Below, in pieces: positions 10,532-63,735 of a stretch of 64,000 nucleotides of DNA. The stretch lies in NCBI RefSeq assembly GCF_963506605.1, contig NC_083280.1, positions 85,560,001 to 85,624,000 of the forward strand, written 5' to 3'. The position numbers and the translations under genes are program-made. Every line of letters begins with the position of its first letter. Position 1 is the stretch's first letter. Source of the DNA: Zootoca vivipara (Eukaryota). Below the pieces are notes generated by a model. It was not told the DNA's origin. It made no database searches and was given only the letters and a program-made list of their open reading frames with translations.

Positions 10532-10667
10532 CAGGCATCCCCAAACTTCGGCCCTCCAGATGTTTTGGACTACAGTTCCCATCTTCCCTGACCACTGGTC
10601 CTGTTAGCTAGGGATCATGGGAGTTGTAGGCCAAAACATCTGGAGGGCCGCAGTTTGGGGATGCCTG
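10532..10667. mobile_element. 136-bp palindromic hAT (Charlie-type) MITE
   Basis: TIRs CAGGCATCCCCAAACT; perfect 8-bp TSD GTATATGC (10524-31 / 10668-75); same family as 62757-62893. Confidence 0.92.
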
Positions 10668-19156: not shown

Positions 19157-19292
19157 CAGTGTTTTCCAAACTTGGGGCTCCAGCTGTTTTTGGACTACAA
19201 CTCCCATCATCCCAAGCTACCAGCGCCAATGGTCAGGGATGATGGGAGCTGTAGTTCAAAAACAGCCGGAGGACTGAGTTTGGGAAACTCTG
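19157..19292. mobile_element. 136-bp palindromic hAT MITE
   Basis: TIR CAGWGTTTYCCAAACT; 8-bp TSD CTCTATAT on both sides; GGACTACAACTCCCATCATCCC core. Confidence 0.88.
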
Positions 19293-25319: not shown

Positions 25320-26646
25320 GCACTGTGGCTCAAAGTATTTTTGTGGGGGGAGTTCAGTGGGTTTTAAAGCTACATGGCCCCAGGGTGTTGGCTCTTCAGA
25401 ATTGTTTGGCCATATTCAGCCTTGAGCTAGGCAGTGGGTAATTAAAAGTCTCCACACACTTAAGTTTACCTCCTGCCAATTAGCATTCTTTCCCAGCATC
25501 TTGCCTCATACTCCCCTTGCTTCCTGCTTCATTGTGGCCTTTCTTGCTTTCACTGACAAGCTTCTGCTTCAAACTTTCTGTGCAAAACAAAGCCACTATT
25601 GGCTTTGAAAAGATCTGTAGGGTGTGTGTTGGTAAATCTTCCCTAGTTATTGCAAGAAGAAAAAGGTTAAATCCTCAATTGCCCTTCATCCTCCTCCTTC
25701 ATTATTCTCTGATGTTTCCCTGTGACTGGGCAGCCACTCTGAAGACTTGAGACTTTTCTTATATTGCTATTGAACAAGGGCATCTAATTAATTGTAGAGC
25801 AGATTTTCCTAACTTTTCAGGTGTTTTAATAAATTGGATCCAATTCCATGTCTAGCCTTATTTTCATTTCAATAAATTGTTGTTGCTGCTGTTGTTGTTA
25901 GGGCTTTCTTTTCTTTTCTTTTCTTTTCTTATTGCCAGAGTTCACCGGAGCTCTGACACCTCTCAGGTGTGTGCCATTCCTAGAGAGAAGTTCATGGTGA
26001 GATCTGGCACCTCTTTTTCTAGAAAAACAGCTCTTGATGTTGTTGCTGTTATTATAAAAAAGTGTATGCTGCCCTATATCCCTAGATCTTAGGGTGGTTC
26101 ACAACATTAAGAACTGCAATATAAAGAACAAACAATGCATAATAAAAACATAAGCAAAGACAACCCAATAACCCCTGCTTCCACAGCACATTTTTGAAGG
26201 GCATTAGATGTCAAATCAGCCAAAAAGCCCGGTTAATTATAAGTAGTGTTACCATTTTTTTCAGTAAGTACATTTGTCATCCTTTATCTGCCTGTTCTCA
26301 TCTGAAGGATAGCAGCAAGCCTACTCATTAACATAACGTGGCAAGCCTTCCTACACCCTTCTTCCACAGATGGTTTAATGTTGTTCTTCCAATTCTTGGC
26401 TATAATTATTTTGGCAGCTATTAACCAAAACAAATTCAGTCTCTCTCTCTCTGTTGCATACTTATCTCCATTTAGGAGGACATGTGGTACAAACAGAACT
26501 CTGTTTTGTCTTTACCACCTCCTTTTATAACCCCATATCTCCAACCATTACCACAAACATTTATTTATTTTTTAAAAATCTGGGTTTTCAGTGCCTTATT
26601 TACCCATCCACAAGTGGTACTGTTTGCATATTTTTATTGTTTTAAG

Positions 26647-27385
26647 TGTTTGTTGTTGTTTAGTCATTTAGTCGTGTCCGACTCTTCGTGACCCCATGGA
26701 CCAGAGCACGCCAGGCACTCCTGTCTTCCACTGCCTCCTGCAGTTTGGTCAGACTCATGTTTGTAGCTTCGAGATCACTGTCCAACCCTGTCGTCCCCTT
26801 CTCCTAGTGCCCTCAATCTTTCCCAACATCAGGGTCTTTTCCAGGGAGTCTTCTCTTCTCATGAGGTGGCCAAAGTATTGGAGCCTCAGCTTCAGGGTCT
26901 GTCCTTCCAGTGAGCACTCTGGGCTGATTTCCTGAAGAATGGATAGGTTTGATCTTCTTGCAGTCCATGGGACTCTCAAGAGTCTCCTCCAGCACCAGAA
27001 TTCAAAAGCATCAATTCTTCGGCGACCAGCCTTCTTTATGGTCCAGCTCTCACTTCCATACATCACTACTTGGAAAACCATAGCTTTAACTATACGGACC
27101 TTTGTAGGCAAGGTGATGTCTCTGCTTTTTAAGATGCTATCTAGGTTTGTCATTGCTTTTCTCCCAAGAAGCAGGCGTCTTTTAATTTCGTGACTGCTAT
27201 CACCATCTGCAGTGATCATGGAACCCAAGAAAGTAAACTCTCTCACTGCCTCCATTTCTTCCCCTTCTATTTTCCAGGAGGTGATGGGACCAGTGGCCAT
27301 GATCTTGGTTTTTTTGATGTTGAGCTTCAGACCATATTTTGCGCTCTCCTCTTTCACCCTCATTAAAAGGTTCTTTAATTCCTCC
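26647..27385 (-). mobile_element. RTE-BovB LINE 3' fragment
   Basis: GLKLNIKKTKIM...EIKRRLLLGRKAMTNLDSILKSRDITLPTKV...WCWRRLLRVPWTARRSN.SIL is the BovB ORF C-terminus; (CAA)n tail; a small frameshifting deletion follows RRRGRQ. Confidence 0.95.
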
Positions 27386-46906: not shown

Positions 46907-47038
<132 letters not shown>

Positions 47039-47800: not shown

Positions 47801-48822
47801 CATAAGGACTTAAGAAGAGCCTGATGGATCTAGTTAGAGGCCTGTCTGGGCCAGCATCCTGTTCTTACAGGGGCTGAACAGACACCTGCTTTGGGAAACC
47901 AGCATGCAGGGGCCAAGTGCAACAGCACCTCTCCCATCCTGTGGTTTCTAGCAACTGGAATCCAGAAGCATATTGCCTGCAACAGTGGAGGTAGAACCTA
48001 GCCTAGTAGCCTTCTCCTCTATGGATTTGTCTAATTCCCTTTTAAAGCCACCCACGTTAATGGCCGCCATTGCCTCTTGTGAGGGTGTGTTCCACAGTTT
48101 GTGTGAAGATGTACTTCTTCTGCCCCAAATCTTCCAGCAGTCAGCTGTCCTAAGTTGTAGTATTGTGAGAGAGGAAGGAAAACTTGTATCCCTCCACTTT
48201 CTCCATGCCATGCATAATTACTTGCCTTTTCTCCAAATGAAAAAGTTCTAAAGGGTGAAGCTTTTCCTTCCCCATTGATCATTTTGGTTGCCCATTTCTG
48301 AACCTTTTTCAATTATACAGTATCCTTGTTGAGATGGGGTGGCCAGAACTGTACACTGTACTCCCAAGTGTGATCGCACCATACATTCATATAACGACAT
48401 CATGATACTGGAAGTCCTAGTTTCAATTCCTTTCCTATTTATCCCTAGCATGGAATTGGGCTTTTTCACAGCTGCCGCACAAAACTTGACATTCTGGCTC
48501 TGCTTCAACAAGGCTTGTTCTTTTGTATGCTTGGCTATTTTATCTCTTACCGCTTTCCATCAGTATACCTAGAACTTACGTTTAAGTTCACTGGCCTGCA
48601 AGTTCCAGTATCCCTACTGGATCCCTTTTTAAAAAATCAGTGTGAGCATCAACCATTTTCCTATCTCCTTGTATGGAGGCTGATCTTCTGAACAAGTCAT
48701 TTATTTTTGTTAATCAGCAGTTTCACCCTTGAGTTCTTCAAGAACCCTTAGGTGGATGGCATCCAGACCTGATGATTTGCCAGTTTCTATTTTGTCAAGA
48801 AGGCTTGGGATAGTCATTTCCA
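47801..48822 (-). mobile_element. Degenerate CR1 LINE with internal deletion
   Basis: Peptides LDKIETGKSSGLDAIHLRVLEELKGE, AAAVKKPNSMLGI.RKGIE...SLY..MVRSHL and EKVQKWATKMI; squamate CR1 3' UTR at the left end. Confidence 0.88.
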
Positions 48823-61199: not shown

Positions 61200-61544
61200 G
61201 TGTGTGTGTGTTTTAAAGATGAAAGGAGGCCAGCAGGCTTAATTCGAATTGGAGGATAACCGATGTATTAGGCATGGATTTATTTTACTAATTATTCATT
61301 AGTACCGTCGACATTTTCTGCTTACAAATAACCCAAAACAACATACTGCAGTTAAAATAAAATATGATAACAACAGATTATTAAACTATACAGGTTGTGA
61401 AGAAAGATAGATGTCTGTCTGCCAAGCCATTTAATTGGTTGACCCTGAGTATTAGGACTGTGACTGGGGAGCAAAATCATTATCTCTCCGCGCAGTAATT
61501 CTGTCTGCTTCTGCCATCCTTATCACCACCACCAACCCACCGCA

Positions 61545-61805
61545 CCTCAAATTTCCTCTCTGAATCTAGAACACCTAAAATACTTCAACATTTTCTTGTA
61601 GGGGAGGTGCTTCAGCCTCTATCTTATTTTTGGTTGCTCTTTTCTGTACCTTTTCCAGCTCTCTATCCTATCCATTCTGAGATGTGAGCAAACGGAACTG
61701 TTCACAGTATCCCAAATCCATAGATTATATGAAGGCATTATGATATTGGCAGTTTTATTTTCAGATCCTAGCTTGGAATTTGCTTGTTTCAAAGCTGCTG
61801 GCTTT
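61545..61805 (-). mobile_element. Degenerate CR1 fragment
   Basis: Minus strand reads ELEKVQKRATK..GLKHLPY and ENKTANIIMP.Y.SM, matching CR1 ORF2. Confidence 0.75.
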
Positions 61806-61823
61806 CATCAGTGCTATTTTTTA

Positions 61824-61870
<47 letters not shown>

Positions 61871-62450
61871 GTGGCAGAACTCACAATGAACACCTCCCTT
61901 ATTGTCTTATAATAGCAACGATGCCCACCTGAGAGGTGCCAGAACTGAGTTCTGGGGAGTACCGGCTGAAAACTATATCCCTGGTTTTCATTGAGCTATC
62001 CACCAGAACCCAAGTACTGTATCTTCTTCTCGATAGGTGTAGCCAGTTCAAATCTCCCGTGGAGAGGGTTGGGCAACAGCAGCATGGTCCCCATGGCTGT
62101 GCCTCCTCACAAGTAGGTGCAGGAGTGCTCAGGTGGATCTGCAATGCCTGTGTGGCCTCTCCTTGCACAGCTAGCAGCAGGGGAAACTCCTGGCACTTCG
62201 AAGGATTATGACTTCATTGGCATGTCTAATGATATGGCACCTGTTTCCCCTTAGCCCCACCTCCTCCAGGGTCAGCTAAGCATAGCATGACCTCTACTAT
62301 GGACAGCCACGGGAACTCCTCACCATCCCAGGGTCACAGCCTAAGGAACACTGCCTTGTTAGAAGATGGTGATTCAGGGCAAGGAAGGCCAGAATCATAC
62401 CTCCAAGTATGGTTTTGGTGCCAAATTCCTGGGGGTGCAACACAGAAAAT

Positions 62451-62964
62451 GCTGTCCCGGGCAGCTCCTTTGGCCACACCTACTAAACCTGACATTGTAC
62501 CCTTTGCTTTAGAGACTCTTTCGCAAACAGACTCCTTGGCACCTATGACCAGGTCTTTGGCACCCAATGCCACCTTTTCAATAGTCTGCTGCACAAGAGG
62601 CAAAGTCTCTTGTAGCTTGTCAAGGCGCTGGCAGACATAGGTGTTTGCTGAAGCAATCTGAGGTTCAAGCCTATTCAGGGGAGGCTGTGCCCCACTTGCT
62701 GGCAAGGAGGCACGCTTTTTTACTACAACTTCTGCCATAGCACAGACTGATTAGATCAGGCATCCCCAAACTGCGGCCTTCCAGATGTTTTGGCCTACAA
62801 CTCCCATGATCCCTAGCTAACAGGACCAGTGGTTAGGGATGATGAGAATTGTAGTAAAAAAACATCTGGAGGGCCGAAGTTTGGGGATGCCTGGATTAGA
62901 TAGCCGAATGGGACCCCTTTGCAGTGTTATGAATAGCAGAAATGATCTTGTAGGTTATGCTGAA
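62451..62964 (-). pseudogene. Processed perilipin (PAT domain plus start of the 11-mer repeats; PLIN3/PLIN2-like) retrocopy fragment, interrupted by a hAT MITE
   Basis: After removing the MITE and one TSD copy, the frame reads FSITYKIISAIHNTAKGSHSAI*SVCAMAEVVVKKRASLPASGAQPPLNRLEPQIASANTYVCQRLDKLQETLPLVQQTIEKVALGAKDLVIGAKESVCERVSKAKGTMSGLVGVAKGAARDS. This is colinear with the perilipin PAT domain (SVC..AE.GVK, SGAQP.L..LEPQIA.AN.Y...LDK..E.LP). It has an in-frame stop and no introns. Confidence 0.88.
62757..62893. mobile_element. 137-bp palindromic hAT MITE inserted in the perilipin retrocopy
   Basis: Inverted copy of the 10532-10667 family; perfect TSD GATTAGAT (62749-56 / 62894-901). Confidence 0.93.
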
Positions 62965-63249
62965 TGCAGCTTTCTCCCCTTCTCCCATTGCAGATTTCCC
63001 CAGGGAAGAGGATTTTTCAAAATTCTTACAGTGGGTTAAGGGGCTGGTGTCAAGAGAGGCCCAAGGGTCTATTCCACCTGAGTCTGCTAGCCTCTCCTAC
63101 TGCACTGCCCATTTCCAGGGTAATAAACACAAAAGGAGGAAGCACAAATCCAGAGGTGGGTTTCCCCATAAAGGGGGACCAAGCCAGCTAACACTGTTCC
63201 TTCCTCTTCATCATCCTCTGCTGTCTGTACAGAGAACATTTCCCTTTTC

Positions 63250-63288
<39 letters not shown>

Positions 63289-63735
63289 GGGGGTTGTTCC
63301 TTCCTTCCTTCCCCCTTTCCATTTCTTTCTTCCTTTCTTTTTTGTTTGCTGCAGCCAATCAATACTGGGGCTGTTCCAGTTTGAGAAGAGCTGGAGCTCA
63401 ATAGGCAATTAAGTGAAAGGAGTGCAATTTCACAGAGAGAAGATGCTGCTTTTGTTTTCAATTAAGTTGCTCTTCCGCTGTACATTGTCCAGATGACCTA
63501 CTTGTTGAATATTCCATTCTAGCGGCAACCACAAAGCCACCATTCTGCTCTTTACCCCGTGCCTCTCTGCTGTGCGCCTTTGCATGCCACTCACCCGCTG
63601 CCCCACCTAGGCTCTCTGCCCCATCTTAACCTTTTGACTTGCAAAAGTGTCCTTGTTTCACATTGCCTTGGGCTGTCAAAAACTGGCGACTCCTTGAATG
63701 CCCAATGAAACTCTTTCCTTCTTCCTCAGCAGTTT

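Follow-up and report, generated by a model that had tools for sequence, protein, structure and literature searches.

How did a stretch of perilipin coding sequence come to lie antisense to a CaMKII exon in the genome of the lizard Zootoca vivipara, and does it do anything there? The window, the whole 64,000-nt stretch of DNA analysed here, had been described in an earlier note, made from its letters, as holding an mRNA-derived, PLIN3/PLIN2-like copy that is split by a MITE and hidden in a CaMKII intron. That note proposed a tblastn search with the MITE-excised sequence, a perilipin tree, a look at the intron positions of the parent gene and a search for the orthologous insertion in relatives. 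Retrocopies arise by reverse transcription with LINE enzymes, and we ask here from which gene, by which route and at what time this one was made.

Results

A broken perilipin frame on the strand opposite CaMKII

The open reading frame at 62337-62750 (-) matches Pfam PF03036 (Perilipin) with an E value of 9e-24 and a score of 84.7 bits against a cut-off of 33, residues 1-97 of the frame aligning to positions 41-145 of the 403-position profile. This frame is part of a perilipin copy of 123 codons at 62451-62964 (-) that is interrupted by a 137-bp MITE. Once the MITE and one 8-bp flank had been removed by script, tblastn aligned the joined frame to the Rhineura perilipin-3-like protein in a single gap-free block of 123 codons (83/123 identical, E 3e-44), and to the Zootoca perilipin-3-like protein with 74 of 123 residues identical and one 11-residue gap. 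Identity to squamate perilipin-3-like proteins ranges from 56 to 68% over 121-122 residues (comparison proteins: XP_061490263, Rhineura; XP_033029706, Lacerta; XP_034953073, Zootoca; XP_077777562, Podarcis). The perilipin assignment of the earlier note and the colinearity of about 123 codons after removal of the MITE are thus borne out; the openness of the joined frame is not, as a single in-frame TAA at 62753-62751 (-), duplicated at 62898-62896, had been overlooked. No frameshift occurs within the 123 codons of the window copy (organism A), the limits of the block being set by its breaks. A tblastn search of the 64-kb window found no other perilipin exons, and a PDB sequence search with the open reading frame returned one chance match (E 0.64). 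The features of the locus are as follows, in window coordinates:

46974..47033 (+), CaMKII kinase-domain exon of 60 bp with AG/GT ends, presumed host gene
62451..62573 (-), 5' part of the parent's 11-mer-repeat exon, including one extra 11-residue unit
62574..62656 (-), 83-bp middle exon of the parent, ending at junction 2 (TIEK|V)
62657..62756 (-), 3' part of the parent's first sampled exon, ending at junction 1
62749..62756, first copy of the 8-bp target-site duplication, holding the in-frame TAA 62753-62751 (-)
62757..62893, MITE of 137 bp with 35-nt terminal inverted repeats
62894..62901, second copy of the 8-bp target-site duplication, holding the duplicate TAA
62902..62964 (-), 5' piece of the copy, 21 codons from the middle of the parent's PAT-domain exon (tblastn alone: 14/22 identical, E 0.001), also found in an organism B contig

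At 46973-47032 (+), all 20 residues equal those of CaMKII in the two alignments shown (alpha), with a best E value of 1e-8 and similar scores for delta and gamma; the exon does not separate the CaMKII paralogs. The copy is antisense to this exon, as the note had claimed, and lies 15.4 kb downstream of it. It appears to lie in the following CaMKII intron, a placement inferred from the upstream exon, since the next CaMKII exon falls outside the window; short-motif scans detected no further CaMKII exons within it.

The copy lacks two introns of its parent

We compared 61900-63240 with 4 of the 23 listed sequencing runs at 80% likeness. The copy runs without a break through the two predicted junctions, 62657|62656 (one base into the Ile codon of EPQI) and 62574|62573 (TIEK|V), in agreement with the earlier reading, and at each of them the parent sequence breaks. 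A 618-nt contig of organism C (X17 record 8) fits 62657-62749 only, with 16 differences in 93 positions, and then continues for 293 letters unlike the window. An X9 contig that shares its ten listed alleles stops at the same base, 62657, by depth arithmetic (8 positions in the bin). Because the residues given by these ten alleles equal those of the Lacerta perilipin-3-like protein P0008 at 8 of the 8 codons touched, we take the X9 and X17 contigs to be parent contigs. A second X17 contig, at a depth of 7.92, covers 62572-62656, which corresponds to the 83-bp exon plus the GT of its donor (bin depths: 37.0 + 3.0 positions); these limits rest on bin-depth arithmetic and not on a listed record. 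The Podarcis gene model P0064 likewise departs from the common sequence at TIEK|V. Our literature search found no published exon map for perilipin genes.

Judged from these contigs, the parent has both introns and the copy neither, and with two parent introns missing the copy is mRNA-derived, as had been proposed. One record stands against this. X13 record 2, from organism B, fits 62574-62697 across junction 1 with 24 differences in 124 positions (80.6% likeness); the GT extension is missing from it. Its source may be a further processed copy of perilipin or a different paralog, or the fit, at the 80% limit, may extend by chance.

The parent is a squamate PLIN3-like paralog

Two trees place the copy. 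A quick tree has 51 rows, in which the copy stands with 50 of about 275 proteins; a careful tree (LG+G4) has 27 and omits PLIN1, the lamprey and fish rows and further long or redundant ones. Neither contains a named PLIN4 or PLIN6, and just 27% of the columns are covered by the copy. Both trees agree that the squamate perilipin-3-like proteins form a squamate-only clade (100/100) apart from canonical PLIN3, PLIN2 and PLIN5, in which the copy is sister to the Zootoca, Lacerta and Podarcis genes (98/96) and Rhineura joins next (100/100, lacertoid clade). A grouping of the copy with PLIN2 is rejected (p-AU 1.6e-5; identity 38.5%), as is one with canonical lacertid PLIN3 (p-AU 1.4e-5) or with Rhineura alone (p-AU 0.017). 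The AU test does not reject a position within the lacertid crown (p-AU 0.126 and 0.054). These comparisons identify a fast-evolving, squamate-only PLIN3-like paralog as the parent, neither PLIN2 nor canonical PLIN3. The PLIN2 half of the earlier label therefore falls, and the PLIN3-like half stands once canonical lacertid PLIN3 is set aside. The note had further offered that the copy was either old or derived from a fast-evolving squamate paralog; both hold.

This extra PLIN3-like paralog is common to geckos, skinks, cordylids, lacertoids, snakes, anguimorphs and iguanians (proteins P0002-P0023 and P0050; trees). In lacertids it lies on contigs of 40-43 Mb, and the canonical PLIN3-like genes of Lacerta and Podarcis lie on contigs of 12-14 Mb. 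In the portion of the perilipin family history PMC5342826 that was accessible, a lizard is credited with PLIN3 and PLIN5 only, and our search, with most subscription papers outside its reach, found no literature on this paralog in lizards. Although a by-product of the analysis, a squamate-wide extra paralog may outweigh the copy itself in worth. A Podarcis lilfordi perilipin, P0069 (CAI5798932.1), carries the source label 'NAD(P)(+)--arginine ADP-ribosyltransferase', apparently a misannotation.

A stop codon, probably followed by a MITE

The arms of the MITE (62757-62791 and 62859-62893) are 35 nt long and 94% complementary, and its flanks (62749-62756 and 62894-62901) are identical over 8 bp. 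Further members of the family lie in the window at 10532-10667 (94%) and ~19158-19289 (80%), each with an 8-bp duplication of its own, so that 3 of 3 copies have one, in one case as a mismatch-free 8-mer read by eye. The element is thus short and non-coding, with terminal inverted repeats, a target duplication, many copies and an empty site in a relative. Its likeness to hAT-type MITEs extends to the 8-bp duplication, from which we presume that class, and our literature search found no name for the family. With a TAA in both target-site copies, the stop is most likely older than the MITE, and stop first, MITE second is the simplest order of events. X9 contigs enter the MITE by fewer than 31 letters from either side and were therefore not counted as bridging it.

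A single X13 contig from organism B covers 62060-62756 (26 differences in 697) and 62909-63198 (21 in 290). It skips the 152 bases between 62756 and 62909, with three letters in between, as expected of an empty MITE site plus a 4-bp deletion; the deletion lies inside the reading frame and shifts it in organism B. The search for an orthologous insertion thus succeeded, in a form that lacks the MITE. Insertion of the MITE in the A lineage after the A-B split is the simpler reading, the alternative being excision in B. Over most of the copy, organism C (X17) has no cover, and such a gap in contigs is no proof of absence. At 63196-63199 the X9 and X13 contigs have 5-16 extra letters, relative to which the window allele is a small deletion. 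Upstream of the copy, an organism C contig of single-copy depth fits only at 63115-63162 and could be 5' untranslated sequence of the parent or a rare repeat.

The copy probably predates a loss in its parent

The A and B copies differ at 47 of 987 sites (corrected 0.049), with no gaps inside the two pieces. Between the copy and the parent exon 16 of 93 positions differ (0.195), a small sample that the 80% filter biases low. By these figures the age of the copy would be some 4 to 8 times that of the split between A and B. It also keeps 11 residues that are present in Rhineura and most other squamates and missing from 5 of the 5 full-length lacertid genes (scored as a spacing of 86 in lacertid genes against 97; a sixth, partial lacertid protein was left unscored), which argues that it is old. 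The 11-mer, on which the date rests, suggests insertion before the lacertid parent lost this repeat.

The copy ends inside exons on both sides

Homology spans ~62964 to ~62451, about 370 bp of coding sequence, and both ends lie inside exons. No poly(A) tail accompanies the copy, the only run of 6 A being 630 bases away. No flanking target duplication is recognisable either: the best exact repeats are 9-mers, none at the homology ends, and age could have erased one. A 3'-anchored structure with poly(A), the mark of a classical L1 target-primed processed pseudogene, is thus not seen, and for this reason we file the copy as a retropseudogene without naming its enzyme. Neither tblastn nor a frameshift-aware profile detected a 3' continuation, the profile score of 15.3 on the 300 bases downstream being reached by 47 of 60 random stretches. 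At the 5' side, a possible extension to the parent's start codon was rejected. The in-frame look-alike of the parent N-terminus at 62967-62997 (-) ranks 214 of 127,918 and is not significant (at 62997, p 0.38 over 286 positions and 0.16 over 106); it would imply an internal deletion of ~22 codons.

The flanks at 62060-62450 and 62965-63250 are of single-copy depth and ~50% GC and are also present in organism B, whose contig departs from the window sequence at 62060. None of the 12 flank frames at 61300-62450 and 62902-63720 reaches a Pfam cut-off. On the same strand as the copy and 3' of it, a decayed LINE-like remnant occupies ~61370-62060 (-), broken up by a run of AAT and by another high-copy repeat (~61820-61985, similar to 25935-26060). 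The remnant is repeated, 61445-61800 matching 48150-48477 (E 2.8e-14), and we take it to be CR1/L2 from its motifs. For the LINE-like frame at 48251-48559 a protein atlas gave only unnamed clusters, at 0.81, which we count as no evidence. A Pfam scan of 23 of the 71 listed open reading frames found none at cut-off, the best being a 209-residue frame at 26758-27384 (-) with a weak RVT_1 match below it (E 0.004), presumably a LINE fragment of RTE type. The window has 0 Rfam matches.

Decay and expression

The frame is disabled by one TAA, the MITE and truncation at both ends, and in organism B by the 4-bp deletion. The terminal branch of the copy measures 0.48, compared with 0.03-0.10 for the lacertid genes (plus a shared stem of 0.14, or 0.17-0.24 from the same node), and all 6 of the 6 A-versus-B differences listed inside codons are non-synonymous. 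No RNA run is listed for the stretch in our search of sequencing runs. In the RNA run X21 (7.5 million records, ~6% of the run), depth occurs only on two repeats and 23 of 30 bins are empty, a blank that is weak evidence in this one run because reads of the parent and of the intron are absent as well. No protein is made from the copy, and splicing most likely removes it along with the host intron.

Discussion

We conclude with high confidence that the copy is a dead, doubly truncated retropseudogene. Its source is the spliced mRNA of the squamate-only perilipin-3-like gene, as the missing introns show. Reverse transcription by a LINE enzyme, most likely of L1 type, would have taken place in the germ line or early embryo of an ancestral lacertid, and the product would have inserted antisense in the CaMKII intron. 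The recognisable ~370 bp, cut inside exons at both ends, may reflect 5' truncation together with internal priming, or else later deletions. Insertion probably preceded loss of the 11-residue repeat from the lacertid parent and was presumably followed by unconstrained decay, in which the stop was gained. After the A-B split the MITE would then have hit this stop in the A lineage, duplicating the TAA; organism B retains the site without the MITE.

A variant of this explanation that differs in its enzyme is a one-step chimera, for which a non-L1 LINE would have switched template from LINE RNA (~61370-62060) to the perilipin mRNA. We regard it as unlikely: it would account for the absent poly(A) and agrees with a repeated LINE-like remnant 3' on the same strand, but ~390 bases of unrelated single-copy sequence separate remnant and copy, no Pfam match backs the LINE label, and the organism B contig departs at 62060. 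That the locus is instead a DNA-level fragment, produced when a perilipin gene or another retrocopy already without these introns was segmentally duplicated or captured by a transposon, seems very unlikely. It is true that the copy has neither poly(A) nor flanking duplication and is cut at both ends, and that X13 record 2 crosses junction 1, so that other junction-spanning perilipin-like sequence may exist in organism B. However, the parent-allele contigs break at junction 1 in X9 and X17, the middle exon stands separate in X17, and a secondary copy of a retrocopy would remain mRNA-derived.

We further consider it very improbable that the copy is not inert, whether as antisense RNA in the CaMKII pre-mRNA directed at the perilipin paralog or as a retrogene for a time. 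A once-functional retrogene, under selection for a while and dead later, would explain why 123 codons align to Rhineura with no indel and only one stop, and why a look-alike of the parent N-terminus lies in frame at 62997. The chance of this is slender, as some two thirds of the coding sequence is missing (the downstream score is matched by 47 of 60 random stretches), the look-alike is not significant, the branch is long, and indels are rare between the A and B alleles too (no gaps in 987 bases). Scarcely credible to us is a regulatory role, in which CaMKII pre-mRNA carrying ~370 nt of antisense would dampen the parent mRNA through small RNAs. The orientation opposite to the host exon, the ~83% identity to the parent exon and retention in two species accord with it; against it, X21 has no RNA reads here, the MITE is tolerated, there is no Rfam match, and A-B divergence (26/697 inside, 21/290 beside) speaks of no strong conservation. 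If true, the antisense reading would couple CaMKII transcription to lipid-droplet control. Much more likely than any non-inert reading is that the retropseudogene is a fossil of a paralog transcribed in the lacertid germ line, with the extra 11-mer repeat still present.

The use of the copy is that of a phylogenetic marker only. Three nested presence/absence markers for lacertid phylogeny are on offer: the copy itself, the loss of 11 residues from its parent, and the MITE. The copy also implies that its parent was transcribed in the germ line or early embryo.

Our search, with most subscription papers outside it, found no literature on this perilipin retrocopy or on squamate perilipin retrocopies. 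The copy is an ordinary retropseudogene, and lizard genomes hold hundreds of retrocopies. As far as its available sections go, PMC3136929 puts the number of retrocopies in Anolis at 404, of which 187 are disrupted, and finds, in a test that left the lizard out, that among non-mammalian chordates the number of retrocopies follows that of LINE1. Set beside the retrocopy criteria given in those sections, the copy has more than 40% identity over more than 40 residues, two missing introns, a disrupted frame and a repeat content below 50% (137 of 514 bases). It differs from the retropseudogenes described there in being an internal fragment of the 5' third of the coding sequence, not 3'-anchored. PMC13320880, from what is accessible of it, reports retrocopies in all 579 assemblies screened, most of them without intact frames; this copy might escape its rule of a junction 'from the 3' end'.

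Tailless retropseudogenes are a nearer likeness, being 3'-truncated and without oligo(A). The excerpts of PMC5322556 at hand favour internal priming for such 3'-truncated copies in therians, and many of these are both 5'- and 3'-truncated. They have flanking duplications and belong to therian mammals, whereas none is recognisable at the lizard copy, so that later deletion and internal priming are not told apart here. With the squamate perilipin-3-like genes the copy shares a clade, and it differs from them as a broken fragment that keeps 11 residues the lacertid genes lack.
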